A stretch of 64,000 nt of DNA. It comes from a virus. Location of the stretch: IMG/VR virus record IMGVR_UViG_3300045988_117831. One strand, written 5' to 3'. Position 1 is the stretch's first letter. Each line of letters starts with the position of its first letter. The position numbers were made by a program, and so were the translations under genes. The notes under the pieces were generated by a model. That model searched no databases, had not been told where the DNA came from, and saw only the letters and a list, made by a program, of their open reading frames with translations. Positions 1,865-64,000 of the stretch are shown piece after piece.

Positions 1865-1958
1865 TATGTAAATCAGTAGCCGTATCAAGGAAGATGCGGC
1901 ATAATATCTACTCAATACTTGGTTCAAGTAAGGGAACATCACTAAGTTGGAGGCGGAC

Positions 1959-2579
1959 ATGAAAGAGCAAGAGCTTGAAATCCCGGAATACTTGAAAGAG
2001 AACGCGCCGGGCGAAATCGACTATTTTGGCGTCATGGATGAAATGGCGGTTGAAGCCACCGACATCGGCCATCGACTGCTGAACCTGGTGGACAAGGCTT
2101 CGCAGCTGGACGTCGAAATCCTCGATCTTCAAAAGGCGCTGGCCGAAAAGGAAGAGGAGCTGAAAACCCTCAAGCGCAACACCATTCCGGAGCTGCTGGA
2201 GGAGCTTGGTCAAAAGACCACTACTCTGGCTGACGGTCGCACGGTCAAAGTCGAGCCGAAGGCCATCATTTCCGTCAAAGAAGAGAACAAATCGAAGTTC
2301 TGGAAGTGGCTGGAAGAAACCGACAACGACGGCATCATCAAGACCAAGGTTCTGGCCGAATTCGGTCGCGGCGAAATGGAAGATGCGAAGAAGGCGGCCG
2401 AGGCTATCATTGAGGCCGGCTATGACGCCACCATCAACCGCGATGTCCACTACCAGACCCTCCAGGCGTTCGGTCGCGAGTATTTGGAGAAGGGCGAAGA
2501 GCTGCCAGATTTCATCGGCGTGCACGAATACAAAGAGGCCAAAATCACGAAACCGAAGGTGAAAAAGAGCAAATCTTAA
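1959..2579 (+). CDS. hypothetical coiled-coil protein with a Lys-rich C-terminus
   Basis: ATG at 1959 preceded by GGAGG. The listed ORF starts earlier, at a TTG. Acidic coiled-coil body and a KPKVKKSKS tail. Confidence 0.55.
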   Translation: MKEQELEIPEYLKENAPGEIDYFGVMDEMAVEATDIGHRLLNLVDKASQLDVEILDLQKALAEKEEELKTLKRNTIPELLEELGQKTTTLADGRTVKVEPKAIISVKEENKSKFWKWLEETDNDGIIKTKVLAEFGRGEMEDAKKAAEAIIEAGYDATINRDVHYQTLQAFGREYLEKGEELPDFIGVHEYKEAKITKPKVKKSKS

Positions 2580-2667: not shown

Positions 2668-3567
2668 ATGGCTGGTAAGAAAACCGAAACTTCCGAAGCA
2701 ACCGAAGAAACCAAGGCCGTAGCAGTTGCCACCGGTGGCGGCGCCGTCGCAACTACCGAAGTTCCCGACTTCATGGATTTGGGATCGTATGACGGCGCAG
2801 GCTTCGAAGGCGCCGATGCCGAGTCCTATGCCATCCCCTTCATCCAGGTTCTGCAGAAGATGTCTCCCCAGGTCGATGAAGATGACCCGAAGTACATCGA
2901 AGGCGCGAAGGCCGGCATGTTCCTGAACACCGTCACCGGCAAGATTTACGACGGCAAGACCGGCCTGCTGATCATTCCGGCCGCGTACCGCCGCGAGTTC
3001 ATCCGCTGGGCCGGTCGCGAGGCCGAGGGCGGTTTCAAGGGCGCCATCAGCGTCGAAGACTTCAAGGAAATGATGAAAGACCCGACCAAGGTGAAGGAAG
3101 TCGAAGGACGCCTGTACGCGCCGAACGAAGACGGTTCGGTCAGCGACAAGAAGTCTGACTACTTCGCCGACACCCGTGGTCATTACGTCATCGTCATCGA
3201 TCCGGACACCGGCGATTTCGGCCAGGCTCTGATCTCCCTGTCGTCTTCGCAGATCAAGGCCTCGAAGAAGCTCATGACCGCGCTGTCCCAGAAAAAGGTT
3301 CAGACCCCGCAGGGCCTGCGCACCCCGCCGACTTTCGCCAACCTGGTCCGCATGACCACCGTAGGCATGTCGAACGACAAGGGCAGCTGGTCCGGCGTCC
3401 AGTTCGAGCTGGAAGGCCTGGTGAAGAACCCGGATCACTTCAAGGCTGCGGCCGACCTGTACAAGTCGTTCGTCGGCGGCGAGGTGAAGGTGGACTACAG
3501 CAAGCAGGAACAGCCTCGCAGTGACGCCGGTGGCGTCGGCGATGCGACCGAAGCCGAAGAGTTCTAA
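2668..3567 (+). CDS. candidate single-stranded-DNA-binding protein (gp2.5-like): acidic C-terminal tail ending in Phe
   Basis: 299 aa with a strong RBS (AAGGAG). The C-terminus DATEAEEF resembles the acidic, Phe-terminated tails of phage SSBs. It sits in the replication/early block. The functional call is inference only. Confidence 0.4.
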   Translation: MAGKKTETSEATEETKAVAVATGGGAVATTEVPDFMDLGSYDGAGFEGADAESYAIPFIQVLQKMSPQVDEDDPKYIEGAKAGMFLNTVTGKIYDGKTGLLIIPAAYRREFIRWAGREAEGGFKGAISVEDFKEMMKDPTKVKEVEGRLYAPNEDGSVSDKKSDYFADTRGHYVIVIDPDTGDFGQALISLSSSQIKASKKLMTALSQKKVQTPQGLRTPPTFANLVRMTTVGMSNDKGSWSGVQFELEGLVKNPDHFKAAADLYKSFVGGEVKVDYSKQEQPRSDAGGVGDATEAEEF

Positions 3568-3620: not shown

Positions 3621-4226
3621 ATGGACTGGAAAGACATAGGTAGTAAGATCGGCGCGGCAGCCCCGGCGTTGGGATCGCTCCTGGGTGGGCCTGCAGGCGC
3701 CGCCGTTGGCTCTATCGTCGCGACGGCGCTGGGGTCGAAGGCCGACCCAGCCTCAGTCGCGAGCGCTCTAGACGCGAATCCGGAAGCTCTAGCGCGCCTC
3801 GCCGAACTCCAGAGCGCCGAGCGCGTTCGTCTCCAGGAGCTTGCGATTCAAGCCGAACAAAATCGCCTTCAGTCTGAGCAGAATCAGCTCCAGGCCGAGC
3901 TTAGCCAGTTCGCCGCAGAGGCGGCAGACAGGGATTCGGCGAGGAGGCTTGCCGCGCAGCAGAACGATTTCGTTCGCCCGGCGATTACATTCGCTCTTCT
4001 GACAGGCTCCATTCTCATCATCATCGCAATCTTCACCTTCGGCCGCGAGGCGCTGATGGACCCGACTTCCTCTGTCGCCATCGGCACAATCATCGGCTAT
4101 TGGTTCGCCGAACTGAAGTCTGTTATGGCCTTCTATTTTGGCACAACCAAGGACGGATCGCGCCAGAGCACGGCATCCATCATCAACGCAGTCAAATCCC
4201 AAATACAGAAGGAATCGAAAGAATGA
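3621..4226 (+). CDS. hypothetical membrane protein (Gly/Ala-rich N-terminus, coiled coil, C-terminal TM helices)
   Basis: 201 aa. Hydrophobic stretches ITFALLTGSILIIIAIFTF and VAIGTIIGYWFA. Confidence 0.55.
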   Translation: MDWKDIGSKIGAAAPALGSLLGGPAGAAVGSIVATALGSKADPASVASALDANPEALARLAELQSAERVRLQELAIQAEQNRLQSEQNQLQAELSQFAAEAADRDSARRLAAQQNDFVRPAITFALLTGSILIIIAIFTFGREALMDPTSSVAIGTIIGYWFAELKSVMAFYFGTTKDGSRQSTASIINAVKSQIQKESKE

Positions 4227-4777
4227 ACATCGAACAAATCATGAGCCGCGAACTTCACGACCTGGTGGTTAAATGGGCTTCCGACCGTAACCTGATCAAA
4301 GGCTCGTCTGCGAAAGATCAATTCCTGAAGTTGGTCGAAGAGTTCGCAGAAGTATGCGAAGCCTGGGTTCAGAACAACCCGGTCGATGTGAAAGATGGCA
4401 TCGGCGACGTAATGGTGGTTGCCACGATCATGGCCGCGCAACTCGGCGAAAATCTGTTCGATCATCTGTCGGCCTTCATCGAGAGCGGCGAAGTACATCC
4501 CACCTACGGCGACGATTTGCAGCGCCTCGGCGATCTGGCAGGCGCTCTGGCACGTGGAAATCATGGGTTGGCCATCAAGAGCCTGGTATCGGCCGCCATG
4601 ACTCTGTTCGACGTGACGGAAGAGCCTGACACCACCATGCTCGCCTGCTACGCTGCTGCCTACGACACCATCAAGGATCGCAAAGGCGTCATGTACGACG
4701 GCGTGTTCATCAAGGAGTCGGATGAGCTCTATGCGTCGATCATGGCCGAACTGAACCACGCCAACGAAACCATCTGA
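4223..4777 (+). CDS. MazG-like nucleoside triphosphate pyrophosphohydrolase
   Basis: ATG overlaps the previous stop (ATGA). The EEFAEVCEAW motif is typical of the MazG/all-alpha NTP-PPase family. Confidence 0.7.
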   Translation: MNIEQIMSRELHDLVVKWASDRNLIKGSSAKDQFLKLVEEFAEVCEAWVQNNPVDVKDGIGDVMVVATIMAAQLGENLFDHLSAFIESGEVHPTYGDDLQRLGDLAGALARGNHGLAIKSLVSAAMTLFDVTEEPDTTMLACYAAAYDTIKDRKGVMYDGVFIKESDELYASIMAELNHANETI

Positions 4778-57593: not shown

Positions 57594-57626
57594 AAGGGAC
57601 TCATGAAAATGGGTCCCTTTTTTATC
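57594..57626 (+). terminator. rho-independent terminator after the KAE-repeat gene
   Basis: AAGGGACTC-ATGAAAATG-GGTCCCTTTTTTAT. Confidence 0.7.
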
Positions 57627-57675
57627 CTCTCAAGTTTTGTACTCTCAAGTTTTGTACACTCATAAGGGACACATC

Positions 57676-58677
57676 ATGATTCCTGATCAGAAAGTAATCA
57701 TCGTAGGTGCCGGACTCGCCGGACTGATCGCCGCGCATCGCTTTCCTCAAGCCCAAATCATCGACGCGGCGACGCCGGAGAACAAGGAGCGCCACAACGC
57801 ACTTCTGCGATTCCGCTCGCCAGTGATTGGCCAACTCACCGGCATCCCGTTCCGCAAAGTCACTGTACACAAAGCTATCTACATCGACGGCGAGTTCATT
57901 TCCCAGCCGCGCATCGACCACTGCAACATGTACTCCAGGAAAGTAACGGGCGGCCTGTCGGACCGGTCCATCTGGAATCTGGCGACTGAAAAGCGTTGGA
58001 TCGCACCGGCCGACTACTATGAGCAGCTGGTGGCTAAGCTTGCGAATCGTATCACTTGGAGCCGTCCTTTCGACGCCTCTTTCTTCCAGTATCTTCGCCG
58101 GCAAGATGACCACGTGAATATCATCAGCACCGCGCCGTTCCGCGCCAATCTGGCTGCGGCAGGGCTGGACCTGGGAATCGACCCGTCATTCGGTGAAGGA
58201 ACCTCCATCATCGTGAGTCGATACAAGCTCTCCATCCCCTGTGATGTCTTCCAGACCGTGTATTTCCCTGGTCCTAAAGTGGGAACGTTTCGAGCGTCCA
58301 TCACCGGTGATACTCTGATCGTCGAATCCATCACTAAAGGGATAGTGGAGACTTTAGATGGTAAAATCGAAACCATCGAATGGGACAGCGACTGGGATAT
58401 GGATTACGTTTGCGCGGCCTTCGGCATCAGAAGGAAACAGCTCATCGAAGATGGCGAGCCGACCATCCAGACCAAAGGCAAAATCATTCCGCTCGGTCGC
58501 GACGAGCGCGAATCCATGATCTGGAATCTCACCCATGAGGCTGGCATCTTCTCGCTCGGCCGGTTCGCTACCTGGCGCAACGTCCTTCTGGATGATCTGG
58601 TTTCGGACATGGACGTCATCGAGCGCCTGATGACTTCTTCGTCTTATCAGAAGGCCAAGAAAATGTTCGTGAAGTAA
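57676..58677 (+). CDS. FAD/NAD(P)-binding Rossmann-fold oxidoreductase-like protein (UGM / amine-oxidase-like)
   Basis: Start MIPDQK after AAGGGA. VIIVGAGLAGLIAAH dinucleotide-binding motif. C-terminal GRFATWRNVLLDDLVSDMDVIERL resembles the C-terminal FAD-contacting segment of that fold. Confidence 0.5.
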   Translation: MIPDQKVIIVGAGLAGLIAAHRFPQAQIIDAATPENKERHNALLRFRSPVIGQLTGIPFRKVTVHKAIYIDGEFISQPRIDHCNMYSRKVTGGLSDRSIWNLATEKRWIAPADYYEQLVAKLANRITWSRPFDASFFQYLRRQDDHVNIISTAPFRANLAAAGLDLGIDPSFGEGTSIIVSRYKLSIPCDVFQTVYFPGPKVGTFRASITGDTLIVESITKGIVETLDGKIETIEWDSDWDMDYVCAAFGIRRKQLIEDGEPTIQTKGKIIPLGRDERESMIWNLTHEAGIFSLGRFATWRNVLLDDLVSDMDVIERLMTSSSYQKAKKMFVK

Positions 58678-58685
58678 TTTACAAA

Positions 58686-58764
58686 AGTGCTTTACTTCTG
58701 GATCAGGTGGGCGTAATATTCCCTCATCGAAACGCGAACCCCTTCAACCAAAAGGAATCGACAA
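58686..58764 (+). promoter_or_regulatory. repeated promoter/leader copy G
   Basis: AGTGCTTTACTTCTGGATCAGGTGGGCGTAATATTCCCTCATCGAAACGCGAACCCCTTCAACCAAAAGGAATCGACAAATG. Confidence 0.6.
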
Positions 58765-58995
58765 ATGGCCCGCGAAGTAACCTTCTCCACCGACAAGAAC
58801 CACACCAAAACCTACGCCACCAAGGCCAATCTCGAACGCGCTATCGCCAAGGCCGAGTGGCTCGGTGAAGGCGCCCGCTACTTCATCCATATGACCGAGG
58901 ACGGCCGCCTGACTCCTGTGTTCCTTCTGAATAGCCTTCCTGCAGGGGCTGGTGCCGTGTGGTGCGCTCAGCACGGCTGGAACGTGGTAGGTTAA
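58765..58995 (+). CDS. hypothetical small protein driven by promoter/leader repeat copy G
   Basis: 76 aa, MAREVTFSTDKNHTKTYATKANLERAIAKAEW... Confidence 0.45.
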   Translation: MAREVTFSTDKNHTKTYATKANLERAIAKAEWLGEGARYFIHMTEDGRLTPVFLLNSLPAGAGAVWCAQHGWNVVG

Positions 58996-59213
58996 TGGCC
59001 GTCGATCCTCGCGAAGCAGCGCTCAAGCGGGCGCTGCTAGCTTTCTTCCGGGACACCGATGCCCTTGGCGGCGGGAGTCTCACCATAACGGCCCGAATCG
59101 TCGGGCCAGAGGGCGACAGGAAGTTTCGCGCCAGTTATTTCCTGAATGGCGAGAAGTTAAGCCTGTCAGATATAATCGCTAAAGTGGAGGCCGAAGATGG
59201 GCCGGATCATTAA
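58995..59213 (+). CDS. hypothetical small protein
   Basis: Start MAVDPREAAL overlapping the upstream TAA (TAATG). Confidence 0.4.
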   Translation: MAVDPREAALKRALLAFFRDTDALGGGSLTITARIVGPEGDRKFRASYFLNGEKLSLSDIIAKVEAEDGPDH

Positions 59214-59415
59214 TATCAAAGCAGTCATTTCGCGCACCACCGAGCGCGATTCTATGGGGTCTCCGTACATCCATGAGTCTTACCGCACTTTCTCTTTCTC
59301 CGCTTCCACCACACTGGTCGCGGCCATCGACTGGGTGAAAGGCCAGTGTCCGGAAATCGTTGACATGCTCATCTACGAGCCGGAAACCGTAGCTGCTCAG
59401 CAGGAGCGCTATTGA
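59197..59415 (+). CDS. hypothetical small protein
   Basis: 72 aa, overlapping start/stop. Confidence 0.45.
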   Translation: MGRIINIKAVISRTTERDSMGSPYIHESYRTFSFSASTTLVAAIDWVKGQCPEIVDMLIYEPETVAAQQERY

Positions 59416-59681
59416 TGTACTCACCAGACCATCCTGAAGAGGTTCCCATGTCTTTCCTAGAAATGCAAATCGACCCGCCGCAAACGCGACAGACAGCGCC
59501 GTCTTTCGTGCTGGTAGGCATCCTGTACCTGATTGGCGATGGGCGCCTGGACGATAAGCCTTTCACTTCGTTCAACCTGTCGTTCGGCAGTCGAGAAGAG
59601 GCCGAGCGCGCCCGCGATAAGATTCGTGAGCACTACCTCGACCGTCGAGATATCCGCGCCGAAATCATCCGCTGCTACTGA
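59412..59681 (+). CDS. hypothetical small protein
   Basis: 89 aa, ATGA overlap. Confidence 0.45.
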   Translation: MMYSPDHPEEVPMSFLEMQIDPPQTRQTAPSFVLVGILYLIGDGRLDDKPFTSFNLSFGSREEAERARDKIREHYLDRRDIRAEIIRCY

Positions 59682-59688
59682 GGCGATC

Positions 59689-59895
59689 ATGGCTATTGAA
59701 CTCGTATACAGAACCTCTGATGGAACCGTCTTCTCGTCAGTTCATGAGGCTGAAGAGTATGAGTCTCGTCTGGAGGCCTGCGAACTGCTTAAGGAAGAGA
59801 TGGAGCAGTATGGACTTCGTAAGGAGCAAGCCCAAGGCCTGGCACTTGCTCTCACAGAAAAATTCACCTTCACGCCAATTCCGGAAGATTTCTGA
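59689..59895 (+). CDS. hypothetical small protein
   Basis: Start MAIELVYRTSDG after GAGGCGATC. Confidence 0.45.
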   Translation: MAIELVYRTSDGTVFSSVHEAEEYESRLEACELLKEEMEQYGLRKEQAQGLALALTEKFTFTPIPEDF

Positions 59896-60812
59896 TGAAG
59901 ATTTCTCTGATCAGTTACACCCAGAACGCCTGGGAACTCCTCCTGGGGACGAAATCCACCCGCATGCGCGGCCAAGACCCGGCGACCATGACCGAAGCCG
60001 AAAAGCTTGACCACTGGAAGTACATGCTGGACACCATCCGCTCGCCGTTCGAGTTCGTGGACTTCATTTTCCAGATCGAGGGTGTCAGCAAGAACTTCAC
60101 CCATCAACTCGTTCGGACTCGTACCGGGGCTTACCAGCAGGAAACCAGTCGCGCTCTGGAAATCAGCGCCGTCGTTCAGCCGGAAGCCTTCCGCTGGGAA
60201 TTCGACGAACCGGCTACGGTAAATGGCGAGCCTGACCCGACCTACCATGTCCGCGAAGAGCTGAACCGTCTGTGGCATGACGCCATTGCCGACGCGCAAA
60301 CCAGCTACCAGAAGCTTCTGGAGGCCGGCGCGTCGCTCCAGGACGCTCGTGCCATCATCCCTTCCAACATGGAAACGAAGATCGCGGCCAAGTTCAATCT
60401 GCGGACTCTCAGCGACATGGCGAAGGTTCGCCTGTGCGTTCGGACCCAGGGTGAATATCAGGAAGTATTCCGCGAAATGCGCCGGCTGGTTCTGGAAGTC
60501 TATCCTATGTTCGACAGCCTGCTCCAGCCGCACTGCGTCGCCACCGGCTCCTGCGCCTTCCCGCGCTATGGGTCGAAGGTGATGAATGAAGAGGAAATCC
60601 AGCAGAAATCCTATGACCGGTTCATGGCCGCTCTGGAGACAAAGCCAGGTCAGATTCCTGTGATTGATGTTCCGTTGGAACCTATCTACCAGTGCAAGTT
60701 CTATCGCCCCTGGATGGATCGCTCGGCCGAGCAGGAAGAACTGCGCCGCGATTTCTGGGGATCGGAAAAACAAGAGGCCAACCCTGTGGCCGTCAATGGG
60801 AAGTCCATGTAA
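59895..60812 (+). CDS. thyX: flavin-dependent thymidylate synthase (ThyX) family protein with variant signature (RTR instead of RHR) and ~100-aa Cys-containing C-terminal extension
   Basis: FIFQIEGVSKNFTHQLVRTRTGAYQQETSRA aligns with the ThyX signature ...EGISRAxxHQLVRHRxxSxSQxSQRY. Downstream ARAIIPSNMETKIAAKFNLRTLSDMAKVRLC matches the ARxxLPxxxxT...NxRxL block. Confidence 0.65.
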   Translation: MKISLISYTQNAWELLLGTKSTRMRGQDPATMTEAEKLDHWKYMLDTIRSPFEFVDFIFQIEGVSKNFTHQLVRTRTGAYQQETSRALEISAVVQPEAFRWEFDEPATVNGEPDPTYHVREELNRLWHDAIADAQTSYQKLLEAGASLQDARAIIPSNMETKIAAKFNLRTLSDMAKVRLCVRTQGEYQEVFREMRRLVLEVYPMFDSLLQPHCVATGSCAFPRYGSKVMNEEEIQQKSYDRFMAALETKPGQIPVIDVPLEPIYQCKFYRPWMDRSAEQEELRRDFWGSEKQEANPVAVNGKSM

Positions 60813-60813
60813 C

Positions 60814-61005
60814 ATGAAGATCATTGTCGAGAAAGTTGGCGACATCGCACAAGTCGAAGTGACCAACGGCAGCGAATCCATTCGCATCACGATGAACGTG
60901 CAATCGTTCGATTTCATCCAGAATGGCGAAGTTTTCCGCCTCACTTCTGATGGGACGTTCATCGATAGAACCGTCACCCAGAAAGCAACCAGTAAGGAAA
61001 TCTGA
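60814..61005 (+). CDS. hypothetical small protein
   Basis: MKIIVEKVGDIAQVEVTNG... Start 1 nt after the thyX stop. Confidence 0.4.
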   Translation: MKIIVEKVGDIAQVEVTNGSESIRITMNVQSFDFIQNGEVFRLTSDGTFIDRTVTQKATSKEI

Positions 61006-61007
61006 AT

Positions 61008-62024
61008 ATGGAACGCAAACCAAAGAATGGCATCATCATCTTCGACCTGGACGGCTGCGTATTCGACGATAGCCACCGCAAGAGCTTCGCCTTGGAACGG
61101 CAATGGGACGAGTATCATTCTCGTCTCGACAAGGACACTCTCAACCCGCACGCTGTAGGTCGCATCAGGAATGCCATCGACGCCGACCTCATGATTTTCT
61201 TCGTCACCGGCCGAACCGACAACCACTTTTTCCAGACCAGGGCCAAGCTCCACCGCGAACTCGGCATCGCCGAACATCGCGAGTATGAACTCATCATGCG
61301 GCCGTATGGTAACACCGAGCCGGCGTCTCAGTTCAAGCGGGCAGTCGCGCTCGACATCCTGAAGAAAATCGAAGGCGTCACCAAGATCGTCGCGGCGTTC
61401 GATGATCGCCAGGACATCATCGATGCCTACAATAGCCTGGGGATCGACTCCTACATCCTGAACCTGGAAGGTTGCGATGCGCCGTTCTTCGCCGTCGCGG
61501 CCGATAGCGACCCCGATAGCGCGCCCAACGACATGGCAGGCGAGCCGTTCCCGGCCGCCCCGAACTCCGCCCCTACCCTCGACGAGGCGTTTGCGAAAGC
61601 CCCGTCTCCGCTCGCTGAAACGGCTCAGTCCGAAGACCCGACCGAAGACGCCGCGCCGTTCGCCATGGAATCCGTCTGGCCGGGCGAAGATGATTCCCAT
61701 CCAGATGATTTCGCGGAAGATGTTCTCAACAATCTGTACGCCGCAGCAGAAGTCTTCCGCGCCCGCCAGAGCACCTATGGTCGCAATGATCTGATGTACG
61801 GAAAGATCATGGAAATCCTCTTCCCGAACGGCCTGGTGGCGAAGACCGCCGATGATCATCGACTCGCCATGTTCGTGATGCACATGGTGGGTAAACTCAC
61901 TCGCCTGGCGAATAGCGGGTTCAAGGATGCCGATTCGGCCTTGGACTCGATCAACTATTCGGCGTTTGTTCACGCCACCATGCGCTCCGGCCGCATCACG
62001 CCGAAAGACGGACAGAAGGCGTAA
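61008..62024 (+). CDS. HAD-superfamily phosphatase-like domain fused to an uncharacterised alpha-helical C-terminal domain
   Basis: N-terminal IIIFDLDGCVF (HAD motif I variant DxDGC), VTGR (motif II-like), AAFDDRQD (motif IV-like). An acidic linker follows, then ~130 aa of unknown function. Confidence 0.5.
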   Translation: MERKPKNGIIIFDLDGCVFDDSHRKSFALERQWDEYHSRLDKDTLNPHAVGRIRNAIDADLMIFFVTGRTDNHFFQTRAKLHRELGIAEHREYELIMRPYGNTEPASQFKRAVALDILKKIEGVTKIVAAFDDRQDIIDAYNSLGIDSYILNLEGCDAPFFAVAADSDPDSAPNDMAGEPFPAAPNSAPTLDEAFAKAPSPLAETAQSEDPTEDAAPFAMESVWPGEDDSHPDDFAEDVLNNLYAAAEVFRARQSTYGRNDLMYGKIMEILFPNGLVAKTADDHRLAMFVMHMVGKLTRLANSGFKDADSALDSINYSAFVHATMRSGRITPKDGQKA

Positions 62025-62099
62025 ATCTTCAGCCGTCGCGATATACTCCTCAGGCCGGTCGCGAAAGCAGCCGGCCTTTCGACATAAGAGGGAACAAAC

Positions 62100-62654
62100 A
62101 TGATATTCGCTGTATGGGATACTGAGACCACAGGACTCCCGTTCCACCAAAGGGTGAGTCTGAGAAAGCAGCCGAGAATCATCGAATTCGCCGGCGTGAT
62201 AACTGATGGCGAAAAGATTTTGGATGAAGTAGAGTTCATCTGCAATCCTGGAATCGTTATCGAGGAAATCATCACCAAGATCACCGGGTTGAAGAACGAA
62301 GACCTGATCAAGCACCCATCTTTCCTCGATCAGCGCCAGAAAGTTCGCGACTTCTTTTCCAGAGCCGACGCGAATATTGCCCACAACCTGCCATTCGATA
62401 AGTTCATGCTGACCTGCGATCTGGCTCGCGGCAAGTTCGGCCTGGACGAAGTCAATTTCCCATCGCTCGATATCTGTACTGTGGAAGAGTCGGCGCCGTT
62501 GTTCGGCCACCGCATGCGGCTGCAACATCTTTATGAGCACTACTGCGGCCCATATGTACAGAAACACCGGGCGCTCGACGACGTGCGACTGCTCCACGAA
62601 GTCTGCAAGCGCATGGGAGTGTATCGGGCGTATCAAGCAATGGAGGCCGCATGA
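62100..62654 (+). CDS. DnaQ-like 3'-5' exonuclease (DEDDh proofreading-subunit family)
   Basis: Exo I WDTETTGLP, Exo II IAHNLPFDKFML, Exo III HRALDDVRLLHEV. Confidence 0.7.
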   Translation: MIFAVWDTETTGLPFHQRVSLRKQPRIIEFAGVITDGEKILDEVEFICNPGIVIEEIITKITGLKNEDLIKHPSFLDQRQKVRDFFSRADANIAHNLPFDKFMLTCDLARGKFGLDEVNFPSLDICTVEESAPLFGHRMRLQHLYEHYCGPYVQKHRALDDVRLLHEVCKRMGVYRAYQAMEAA

Positions 62655-64000
62655 TGTCTTTCCCTCAACTCCGCGTTCGCTCCGGTTACTCCTATGGCGC
62701 CGCATATGGCCGATTCCCGGAGATCATCGAGCGCGCCAAAGAGATCGAATCCCCATTCGTCGCCATCGTCGATGATGGTACCTGGGGCCACGTCCGTTGG
62801 GAGCAAGCCGCTACCAAGGCAGAACTGCCTCGCGGATTCGGCATGGAAATCCCGATCAAATGCGCTGACGATGGCGAGAAAGCGCTGAAGCTCAAAGCCT
62901 GGGTGCTCGCCAAGGACACCAGGAAGTTCTACCGCTTGACTTCCAAGTCTGTCCAGAATCAAGGACTGACTCCGCAAGAATTCCAGGAAGCTGACGGCGT
63001 CATCAAATTCGCTGGCGAGGCGTATGCCCATTTGGATCTGGCCGGAATCGACTACATTGACATCAATCCCGCGTCGATGGTCGCCGCGCACGGTGCTATG
63101 GAGACGTCCAGAGCATTCGGAAAGCCGGTGGTGATTACCTCTTACAACGACATGCCGTCCATCGACCATGCCGATTTCGCGTCGGCCTGGAAGGTGCGGG
63201 AGTCGGTCGGCCTTCGCCACATCGCCACTGAAGAGGAGTTGTGGAGCCGTTTACGCCATATCATGACTCGCGAAGAGTTCGATTCCGCCATCACCAATAC
63301 TCGTGCGGTAGTTGAGCAGTTGGCGGATGTGAAACTGGCGAAGGCGCCGATGATCCACTTGGATGGTGATATCGTCGCTCTGGCTCGCGAGGGGCAAGCC
63401 TACCGCCTCAGTCGCGGCCACATCAAGGAATGGACCCAGGAGTATGAGGATCGATTCCAAGAAGAGATCAAGCAGATTCAGCTGAAAGACTTCGACAGCT
63501 ACTTTCTGGTGGTCGCCGATCTGGTTGCGTTCGCCAAGAAGCATATGCTGGTCGGCCCGGCTCGCGGCTCTTCAGCCGGCTCTTTGGTCTGCTACCTCCT
63601 GGGCATTACCGAGGTTGACCCGCTCCCGCATCGCCTTCTCTTCCAGCGCTTTATCGACATTTCCCGTTCCGATCTTCCCGATATAGATATCGACTTCGCC
63701 GATACCCATCGCTATCTAGTGTTCGAATATCTCCAGCAGAAGTATGGCACTTGGAACGTTGTGAAGTTGGGTAACATCAACACACTCAAGGCCGCGTCGG
63801 TTATCGCTCACGTCGGAAAGCGCTTCGGCATCCCCTTCCACGATACCGACAACATCAAAAACTCGATCATTGAATATACGTCGGCGGACGAACGGTATGG
63901 AAAAGGATTGGAGGACACTTTCGAAAAAACTCAACCCGGCCGCGACTTCCGTGAAAAGTATGAGATCGCGTCCGCCTGCATGGGCGACCTCGAAATTCAC
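62651..64000 (+). CDS. dnaE: DNA polymerase III alpha subunit (DnaE-type), N-terminal PHP domain onward; continues beyond the window
   Basis: Open frame from ATG 62651 (ATGA overlap with dnaQ) to the window end. ...VGPARGSSAGSLVCYLLGITEVDPL is the classic DnaE motif. Not in the ORF track because no stop lies within the window. Confidence 0.75.
   Translation, partial: MMSFPQLRVRSGYSYGAAYGRFPEIIERAKEIESPFVAIVDDGTWGHVRWEQAATKAELPRGFGMEIPIKCADDGEKALKLKAWVLAKDTRKFYRLTSKSVQNQGLTPQEFQEADGVIKFAGEAYAHLDLAGIDYIDINPASMVAAHGAMETSRAFGKPVVITSYNDMPSIDHADFASAWKVRESVGLRHIATEEELWSRLRHIMTREEFDSAITNTRAVVEQLADVKLAKAPMIHLDGDIVALAREGQAYRLSRGHIKEWTQEYEDRFQEEIKQIQLKDFDSYFLVVADLVAFAKKHMLVGPARGSSAGSLVCYLLGITEVDPLPHRLLFQRFIDISRSDLPDIDIDFADTHRYLVFEYLQQKYGTWNVVKLGNINTLKAASVIAHVGKRFGIPFHDTDNIKNSIIEYTSADERYGKGLEDTFEKTQPGRDFREKYEIASACMGDLEIH

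Follow-up and report, generated by a model that had tools for sequence, protein, structure and literature searches.

The DNA analysed here (the window, 64,000 nucleotides of IMG/VR virus record IMGVR_UViG_3300045988_117831) is an almost complete, circularly permuted genome of a Pbunavirus, a PB1-like myovirus of Pseudomonas aeruginosa, and it encodes a divergent homologue of the thymidylate synthase ThyX, the equivalent of gp60 of phage 14-1. Sequence comparison places gp60 in a branch of the ThyX family that appears to be restricted to viruses within the collections scanned. New here are this virus-only ThyX-like branch, its partner flavoprotein, gp66, and a site of four cysteines (Cys4) that some branch members have. 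The virion DNA of Pbunaviruses F8 and 14-1 contains sugar-decorated thymine, and gp60 is the best candidate for the enzyme that initiates this modification.

A ThyX homologue with an altered active site

The stretch 57600-62700 of the window matches 297 phage records at 80-99% identity, and the ThyX-like protein matches phage 14-1 gp60 at 100% identity. It is encoded by an intact open reading frame (ORF) of 305 codons with an ATG start and a stop codon, whose translation contains all three peptides FIFQIEGVSKNFTHQLVRTRTGAYQQETSRA, ARAIIPSNMETKIAAKFNLRTLSDMAKVRL and HCVATGSCAFPRY. A preliminary description of this DNA, made from the sequence alone, had assigned the ORF to the ThyX family, and the assignment is borne out by Pfam (Thy1, PF02511, 2e-31 over aa 30-204; 109.7 bits against a cut-off of 24.8), by the phrog_85 profile (1.5e-54), by a sequence search of the PDB (ThyX 6j61 at 5e-9) and by structural comparison. 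The AlphaFold2 (AF2) model of gp60 (pLDDT 86.6, pTM 0.82) has only ThyX or PolB structures among its top 50 Foldseek matches in the PDB, with E-values of ~1e-10 and target TM-scores (TMt) of 0.65-0.80 over ~210 residues. Used as a tblastn query, the ThyX of Thermotoga maritima fails to detect gp60. Thus, gp60 is a genuine but unusual relative of ThyX, and its family match is far beyond chance.

In the T. maritima reference sequence used to compare active-site residues, the numbering agrees with the published residues. The alignment shows four changes (H79 to T75, S88 to T84, G89 to S85 and Y91 to A87, T. maritima residues first), so that the earlier reading of RTR for RHR and SRA for QRY holds in the translation, and three more that had been missed (H53 to I48, E86 to Q82 and H178 to R183). 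As a result, gp60 departs from the ThyX motif RHRX7S (Myllykallio 2002, cited in PMC2826268) and reads R74-T75-R76-x7-T84 (RTRX7T) in its place. The residues that bind deoxyuridine monophosphate (dUMP) are all kept: R78, R80, R90, R147 and R174 of T. maritima correspond to R74, R76, R86, R152 and R179 of gp60, and Q75 corresponds to Q71. These Gln and Arg positions are conserved in 138-143 of 149 diverse representatives of the family.

In canonical ThyX, Tyr91 and Ser88 are described as 'strictly conserved' and critical, and mutating Tyr91 makes flavin oxidation ~1000-fold slower (PMC11940539). His53, which is hydrogen-bonded to Tyr91 and stacks on either flavin or folate, is likewise 'strictly conserved' with Tyr91, and a role as general acid has been proposed (PMC11940539). 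As judged from the alignment, gp60 lacks both members of this functional His53-Tyr91 pair. The lost residues would line the folate/carbinolamine side of the pocket, and the retained ones would hold dUMP.

Distribution of the variant branch

An exhaustive homologue search returned 2402 matches, from which the 149 representatives (29-66% identity) were taken. Among the 120 close relatives of gp60, the RTR sequence is found in 119, at identities down to 52%, which shows that the variant motif is under purifying selection and rules out an isolated mutant or a decaying gene. In the wider set of 149, the His79 position is occupied by Thr in 69 representatives, His in 31, Gln in 17, Ser in 10 and Asn in 9, and the Tyr91 position by Val in 46, Phe in 30, Thr in 18, Ala in 14 and Tyr in 12. 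The His53 and Tyr91 positions covary: of 140 representatives, 10 have both residues, 125 have neither and only 5 are mixed. Two homologues (P0151 and P0265) carry inteins inserted directly before the active-site motif THQLVR, which fits a functionally critical site. On this comparative evidence it is near-certain that the altered signature is a trait of a large subfamily and not a quirk of one lineage. The 'lineage-specific motif' of the preliminary description was thus wrong in scale, as the signature spans hundreds of sequence clusters and many phage groups.

We also scanned one genome per species from 185,579 species with two peptide patterns, one of them neutral to RHR/RTR. The scan found 237 relatives, and the counts given here refer to the 80 most similar to gp60. 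About 73 of these 80 come from chromosomal contigs as long as 4.8 Mb and read GH..LEH, RHR and SQRY, with one Phe and one His at the Tyr91 position; a few prophage-like copies among them have part of the cysteine pattern described below. Their hosts include Spirochaetota, Leptospiraceae, Gemmatimonadota, Nitrospirae, Dehalococcoidia, Hadarchaeota and others. The seven variant loci kept among the 80 are all on phage-like or short contigs: five have a Pbunavirus-like replication module, one is on a Gordonia-phage-like contig and one on a 2.6-kb fragment. gp48 of mycobacteriophages L5 and D29, the one phage ThyX that we found reported as characterised (PMC6999906, citing Bhattacharya 2008), is in L5 fully canonical (His53, RHR, S-x-R-Y), adjoins a ribonucleotide reductase gene and has no gp66 neighbour. 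A literature search found no characterised member of the variant subfamily. The substitutions in gp60 are therefore not common among functional ThyX enzymes, represented here by the ~73 chromosomal proteins and L5 gp48, and this favours neofunctionalisation, one of the two readings offered in the preliminary description.

The partner flavoprotein gp66

The strongest clue to the role of gp60, and one that the preliminary description missed, is its pairing with gp66, a protein that combines an N-terminal GxGxxG FAD-binding fold with a C-terminal GRFATWRN-LLDD motif. gp66 has 2139 homologues and no Pfam family (its own sole Pfam match is a sub-threshold one to FAD_binding_2), and no NCBIfam match was found. 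Foldseek searches with its AF2 model (pLDDT 90.6) give UDP-galactopyranose mutases (UGMs) as the best matches (E 1e-10, query TM-score (TMq) 0.58-0.62), followed by PHBH-type monooxygenases (TMq ~0.5); in a profile search of the PDB, UGM appears only at an insignificant E-value of ~1.8. UGM (Glf) shares the N-terminal GxGxxG FAD domain, and the C-terminal GR..T[WY]R...DD motif of gp66 resembles the UGM signature; gp66 also has many invariant Arg, Lys and Tyr residues that would suit a nucleotide or nucleotide-sugar ligand. In contrast to UGM, gp66 has no match to the Pfam GLF family and is shorter by ~50-170 residues, and it scores nearly as well against PHBH monooxygenases. We therefore regard gp66 as a predicted flavoprotein of the UGM/PHBH superfamily and do not term it a UGM. 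Its homologues have been deposited under the names 'UDP-galactopyranose mutase', 'polyamine oxidase' and 'putative flavoenzyme'.

We retained 80 gp66-encoding loci from IMG/VR, of which 75 are informative, the contigs of the other five ending within 1.9 kb. In all 75 a ThyX-like gene lies downstream of gp66 on the same strand, at a gap of 12-2891 bp, and the readable motifs of these proteins are all R[TS]R, never RHR. The same arrangement is seen in every flanked variant-type contig of metagenome-assembled genomes in the species-genome scan. gp66 is located immediately upstream of the variant ThyX gene in Xanthomonas phage XcP1 and the Escherichia coli Wifcevirus Bas99 (42-43% identity), upstream of it in a Ralstonia phage, and overlaps it in a 42-kb Cronobacter podophage; the pairing is also found in Carpasinavirus. 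In a Rhizobium jumbo phage (207 kb) the two genes are separated by 2.4 kb with a homing endonuclease gene in between, and genes for a HAD hydrolase, dUTPase and ribonucleotide reductase are adjacent. In Microbacterium phages, the overlapping 'oxidoreductase' gene encodes a distant form of gp66 that matches it in the N-terminal region (E 6e-7). The distributions of gp66 and gp60 in the phage database are nearly the same. It is near-certain that the two are paired, with gp66 the obligate partner of the variant ThyX and both inherited as a unit.

The C-terminal extension and its cysteines

The extra C-terminal region of ~100 residues that had been reported for gp60 is present (aa ~205-305, beyond the ThyX core) and is not covered by any ThyX in the PDB (Foldseek TMq ~0.53). 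The reported CxxxxC pair is in fact C214-x5-C220 (Cx5C), and the cysteines invariant in 121 sequences number four rather than two: C181, which lies in the core two residues past the dUMP-binding Arg179, C214, C220 and C267. Across the wider family, the three cysteines that can be aligned occur in an all-or-none manner, with all three present in 87 representatives, none in 46 and a mixed pattern in 3. A fourth cysteine follows downstream in each of the 87 with all three, at a distance of at most 20 residues in 86 of them. From this pattern, an all-or-none four-cysteine site is near-certain, and it probably binds metal, as a Zn or an Fe-S site, and would pin the extension to the helix bearing Arg179. 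The Cys4 site is missing from the distant gp66-linked copies of the Cronobacter, Ralstonia, Rhizobium and Microbacterium phages, so that it is an elaboration of one branch and not a defining feature of the subfamily.

Part of the extension is an insertion specific to Pbunavirus (see Table 1), and so is the segment aa 104-121 of the core, which is gapped in most of the 120 relatives. Some homologues have long N-terminal extensions, in which we looked for a Pfam domain as a functional clue and found none.

Thymidine modification in Pbunavirus DNA and the proposed function

A bioRxiv preprint of 2025 by the groups of Bondy-Denomy, Weigele and Koonin (PMC12191111) deals with the DNA of Pbunaviruses F8 and 14-1. 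F8 DNA is resistant to five restriction enzymes that have TG in their sites and is cut by five that do not, and mass spectrometry coupled to liquid chromatography (LC-MS) of nucleosides from F8 and 14-1 revealed new species of 362 and 390 Da that replace about a quarter of the thymidines, at TG sites (PMC12191111). The authors read these as two thymidine derivatives, one with a tetrose sugar alcohol and one with a cyclised aldopentose, state that sugar-bearing thymine dictates sensitivity to a host nuclease family, and cite pbunaviruses as phages without known modification genes (PMC12191111). Our literature search found no later paper assigning such genes. The virion DNA of these two relatives is thus not limited to canonical bases, a result that again supports neofunctionalisation. 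In the window, 27.7% of all T on both strands is followed by G, which matches the 'one quarter' if every TG is modified; TA is the rarest T-context, at 12.3%. The masses are those expected for O-substituted 5-hydroxymethyldeoxyuridine (5-hmdU), as 258 + 122 (tetritol) - 18 = 362 and 258 + 150 (pentose) - 18 = 390.

We hypothesize, at slightly less than even confidence, that gp60 and gp66 supply 5-hydroxymethyl-dUMP (5-hmdUMP) as the handle for Pbunavirus thymidine hypermodification. The preliminary description had suggested a neofunctionalised pyrimidine-C5-modifying enzyme; the absence of the signature from functional ThyX and the hypermodified DNA of 14-1 and F8 agree with this, and the tie to gp60 itself is hypothetical. 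In the proposed mechanism, gp60 would bind FAD and dUMP and move a one-carbon unit to C5 of dUMP via a flavin N5 adduct; the resulting 5-methylene intermediate would be captured by water instead of being reduced to a methyl group, releasing 5-hmdUMP. After phosphorylation, 5-hmdU would enter phage DNA, where DNA-level enzymes would attach tetritol (F8-type) or pentose (14-1-type) at TG sites, and 5-hmdU outside these sites would be converted to thymine, as in phages phiW-14, SP10, M6 and ViI. The role of gp66 would be to sustain the flavin chemistry or, alternatively, to prepare the sugar donor.

ThyX passes via a flavin-N5-methylene adduct and 5-methylene-dUMP, both of which add water on quenching to give 5-hydroxymethyl-dUMP (PMC4913046), and in the known thymidine-hypermodifying phages T is replaced by 5-hmdU, which is then converted sequence-specifically to the modified base or to T (PMC8989533). 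An enzyme that, as the alignment suggests, holds dUMP and lacks the Tyr/His apparatus for flavin oxidation would plausibly be a natural hydroxymethylase. UGMs, like ThyX, use the N5 of reduced flavin as a covalent, redox-neutral catalyst. Hydroxymethylation would also be redox-neutral on reduced flavin, and this parallel may explain the partnership of gp60 and gp66. In a broader form of the proposal, the two-flavoenzyme module would be the entry to a new, widespread type of phage thymidine hypermodification, with gp60 acting as a flavin-dependent dUMP hydroxymethylase or C5-alkylase and gp66 supplying or processing the sugar; we consider this possible, if not probable.

A number of observations weigh against the 5-hmdUMP proposal. 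gp60 passes the cut-off of the NCBIfam thyX equivalog TIGR02170, albeit marginally (88.1 bits against 87.9). Three quarters of virion T is canonical, and the modification is sequence-specific and hence needs DNA-level enzymes. The route requires several extra steps, namely a 5-hmdUMP kinase, exclusion of dTTP, a TG-specific transferase and conversion of 5-hmdU to T, and Pfam scans of 27 non-structural ORFs of the window detected no homologue of the 5-hmdU DNA kinase. ThyX chemistry rests mostly on the flavin and on arginine-driven polarisation of the substrate, so that even a divergent site could still make deoxythymidine monophosphate (dTMP), and a plain dTMP synthase would be sensible in a phage with a GC content of 55.6% (the value for the window), whose demand for dTMP exceeds the supply from its 66% GC host. 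The variant subfamily occurs very widely, also in actinophages not known to be modified, and its restriction to viruses, strong as it is, comes from a pattern-limited scan and is not exhaustive. Finally, C-C linked isomers have the same masses, as deoxyuridine (dU) 228 + pentose 150 + 2 (2H) - 18 (H2O) = 362 and dU 228 + hexose 180 - 18 = 390.

The searches for other modification enzymes can be summarized as follows. Among the same 27 ORFs, which do not include all small ORFs of the window, there was no Pfam match to a kinase, glycosyltransferase, TET/JBP dioxygenase or radical-SAM enzyme, and the kinase and transferase matches expected of a P-loop 5-hmdU DNA kinase and an aGPT-Pplase transferase were likewise not seen. 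Sequence searches of the PDB with gp52, gp58 and gp71 found nothing. ThyA is absent from the annotation of 14-1, and tblastn with E. coli ThyA gave no match with E < 1 in the window. The lack of ThyA and of kinase, TET/JBP and glycosyltransferase matches counts in favour of the 5-hmdUMP proposal.

Alternative explanations

There is a substantial possibility, short of a probability, that gp60 is a divergent but genuine dTMP synthase whose altered residues are compensated, and that hypermodification is carried out by other, DNA-level enzymes starting from thymine. gp66 would then be an accessory protein, e.g. an NAD(P)H-dependent reductase or a flavin loader that replaces the lost His53-Tyr91 gating of NADPH and folate; its top Foldseek matches come from crystals of fungal UGMs with NAD(P)H. 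Such an enzyme would be expected to pass the Pfam and TIGR02170 cut-offs and to retain all dUMP-binding Arg residues and the Gln, as gp60 does, to be encoded in a replication and nucleotide module, here near DnaQ and DnaE and in the Rhizobium jumbo phage beside dUTPase and ribonucleotide reductase, and to meet the higher thymine demand of the phage. It would also account for the 73% of T that is unmodified and for a TG-specific, hence post-replicative, modification, would call for neither of the unrecognised enzymes (5-hmdU DNA kinase or dNMP kinase) and involves fewer unknown steps than the 5-hmdU route. However, the variant signature is found in none of the ~73 chromosomal ThyX proteins, which is odd for a self-sufficient synthase given how notoriously readily thyX undergoes lateral transfer with phages as vehicles (PMC2826268), and the loss of Tyr91 is the very change that is so costly in the model enzyme (PMC11940539). 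Moreover, a dTMP synthase should have no need of an obligate second flavoprotein, and UGM/PHBH is not known as a flavin-reductase fold. This explanation also leaves the oxidised C5 substituent unaccounted for, as the Pfam scans of 27 non-structural ORFs revealed no signature of TET/JBP or any other oxygenase.

It is improbable that gp60 acts on another pyrimidine nucleotide (UMP or dCMP) in the manner of PolB, or is a catalytically dead scaffold or regulator. The departure from RHRX7S and the presence of PolB (4p5b), a UMP/dUMP C5-methylase, among the structural matches speak for it, but PolB is no closer to gp60 than ordinary ThyX structures are, and what has been reported is a modified thymidine, with T:A < 1 (PMC12191111). 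Catalysis is further suggested by the conservation of the substrate-binding Arg residues and the variant loop across hundreds of clusters and by the inteins beside the motif, which point to a functionally critical site.

Least probable, and very unlikely, is a C-alkylase in which gp60 takes a sugar-derived electrophile, conceivably a UGM-type flavin-N5 sugar iminium delivered via gp66, and builds a C-C linked polyhydroxyalkyl group on C5 of dUMP: the isomeric masses given above, the loss of the folate/carbinolamine side of the pocket with the dUMP side kept and the UGM-like fold of gp66 would suit it, whereas the chemistry is without precedent, the ThyX active site is buried, folate-sized and unsuited to an adduct on the flavin of another protein, a product made at the nucleotide level would be incorporated regardless of sequence, in conflict with a modification that is confined to TG and apparently complete there, and gp66 and gp60 are nearly identical between 14-1-type and F8-type phages and so cannot encode the difference between their adducts.

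Comparison with known systems

With ThyX (T. maritima TM0449, Mycobacterium tuberculosis Rv2754c, PBCV-1 A674R and L5/D29 gp48), gp60 shares the fold, the dUMP-binding set, the position of the loop and a location among replication and nucleotide-metabolism genes. It differs in lacking His53, His79 and Tyr91, in having Thr for Ser88, and in the addition of the ~100-aa Cys4 extension and of the gp66 partner. PolB of Streptomyces cacaoi (4p5a/4p5b), which functions in polyoxin biosynthesis, is a precedent for use of the ThyX scaffold beyond housekeeping dTMP synthesis; unlike the activity proposed for gp60, it still methylates, and it has neither the Cys4 extension nor a gp66-like partner as far as tested.

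The dUMP hydroxymethylases of the ThyA family (SPO1 gp29 and those of phiW-14, SP10, M6 and ViI) resemble gp60 only in the proposed pre-replicative supply of 5-hmdUMP, whereas their ThyA fold is unrelated and they use a cysteine nucleophile and no flavin. The known hypermodification systems (Lee et al. 2018, 2021) have in common with the virion DNA of Pbunaviruses F8 and 14-1 a sequence-specific C5-substituted thymidine (PMC12191111), but their 5-hmdU DNA kinase and aGPT-Pplase genes were not detected in the window.

Genomic neighbourhood

The features of the window are listed in Table 1. Of the neighbours named for gp60 in the preliminary description, the flavoprotein, the HAD fusion, DnaQ and DnaE are indeed nearby, whereas the MazG-like gene lies beyond DnaE and the helicases of the circularly permuted genome and, by window coordinates, is not adjacent. 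In Pbunavirus, Wifcevirus and Carpasinavirus, synteny makes the HAD fusion (gp58) the third gene of the module; a HAD phosphatase, sought as the third member of the module, was not detectable in the Cronobacter, Ralstonia and Microbacterium phage loci. The gene is annotated as 'polynucleotide kinase', yet a kinase domain is undetectable, and the protein could be a nucleotide-pool phosphatase. Its C-terminal ~150 aa have a weak, sub-threshold match to DUF6378 (E 0.016). We considered this half as a MazG-type pyrophosphatase, which would make gp58 a fusion of the dTTPase-dTMPase kind, and did not adopt the assignment, as the search gave only the DUF6378 match and there is no similarity to the MazG-like protein of the phage. 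The latter is a possible pool-editing enzyme, and its link to the module is inferred.

Table 1. Positions of gp60, its sequence features and other genes in the window
Feature	Position	Strand	Remarks
ThyX-like flavoenzyme (14-1 gp60 equivalent), 305 aa	59895..60812	+	core aa 1-~205; C-terminal extension aa ~205-305
Position of T. maritima His53 (codon 48, Ile)	60036..60038	+	from alignment; covariation with Tyr91 position
Variant ThyX loop QLVRTRTGAYQQETSRA, codons 71-87 (Q71, R74, T75, R76...T84, S85, R86, A87)	60106..60156	+	in place of Q-x-x-R-H-R-x7-S-x-R-Y
Span of the four invariant Cys codons	60435..60695	+	C181 60435-60437; C214 60534-60536; C220 60552-60554; C267 60693-60695
Pbunavirus-specific insertion in the extension, aa 229-264	60579..60686	+	predicted helix; low conservation; gapped in most of 120 relatives; pLDDT 68-75
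gp66-like flavoprotein, 333 aa from ATG	57676..58677	+	phrog_4828 (2.6e-206), no assigned function; alternative TTG start 57637
HAD-superfamily phosphatase (aa 1-~150, PNKP-phosphatase-like) with uncharacterised C-terminal domain (gp58)	61008..62024	+	Pfam HAD_PNKP 2.6e-11; phrog_4889
DnaQ-like gene	62100-62654		start of DnaE at ~62654
MazG-like nucleotide pyrophosphohydrolase (14-1 gp50 equivalent)	4223..4777	+	weak Pfam MazG/PRA-PH, E 0.002-0.006; RefSeq 14-1 gp50
Lys/Glu/Ala-rich repeat protein, 297 aa	56663-57556	+	KAEREAEK-type repeats; no Pfam match
Pam3 gp33-like protein	1947-2579	+	DUF7307
Pam3 gp34-like protein	2668-3567	+	
Antisense ORF, 987 aa	59742-62705	-	over the ThyX-like, HAD and DnaQ genes

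Several other genes in or near the module deserve mention. In two distant phage contigs (L008:627-950; L010:2530-3896), genes for Pam3 gp33-like and gp34-like proteins adjoin those of gp66 and the ThyX-like protein; the Pam3-like proteins are candidates for DNA-level modification steps. The Lys/Glu/Ala-rich repeat protein is encoded in a syntenic position between a Dda-like helicase and gp66 in XcP1, where it is annotated as 'putative structural protein', and in Bas99. In these two phages the HAD gene is followed by a short-chain dehydrogenase gene that is absent in the window (XcP1, L001:7847-8542; Bas99, L002:7745-8428); its product is weakly epimerase/RmlD-like, with a sugar or a pterin as possible substrate. 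The Rhizobium jumbo phage (L087:6909-7559) and the Cronobacter podophage (L085:7226-7672) have homing endonuclease genes (Seg-like, HNH) inserted in or beside the gp66/ThyX module. Rhizobium phage RHph_TM3_3_6 encodes a dihydrofolate reductase (L091:615-1130), and the variant ThyX is its sole thymidylate-synthase-like gene in 127 of 207 kb, the stretch in which no second, conventional thymidylate synthase was found; the canonical ThyX reaction yields no dihydrofolate. The long antisense ORF over the ThyX-like, HAD and DnaQ genes looks like a GC-rich shadow ORF.

Implications

Pbunaviruses are among the phages most used in therapy against P. aeruginosa, and the present analysis nominates a conserved gene pair, gp66 and gp60, along with the neighbouring phosphatase gene, for the beginning of their thymine modification pathway. 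If gp60 does not make 5-hmdUMP or another modified product, the family would still comprise a ThyX lineage confined to viruses that makes dTMP despite lacking supposedly essential residues and needs a partner flavoprotein, which would bear on the mechanism of ThyX and on inhibitor design. If the proposal is correct, it would represent the first non-ThyA route to 5-hmdU nucleotides and new chemistry in a drug-target family, with a ThyX that goes no further than hydroxymethylation or draws on a new donor, and hundreds of 'thymidylate synthase' entries in the databases may be misannotated. The module would then be a genomic marker by which hidden modification of DNA could be recognised in many groups of phages, the restriction-resistant Wifcevirus among them, and would mark as cryptically modified the genomes of Pbunavirus, Wifcevirus, Carpasinavirus, Rhizobium jumbo phages and some podophages and actinophages.

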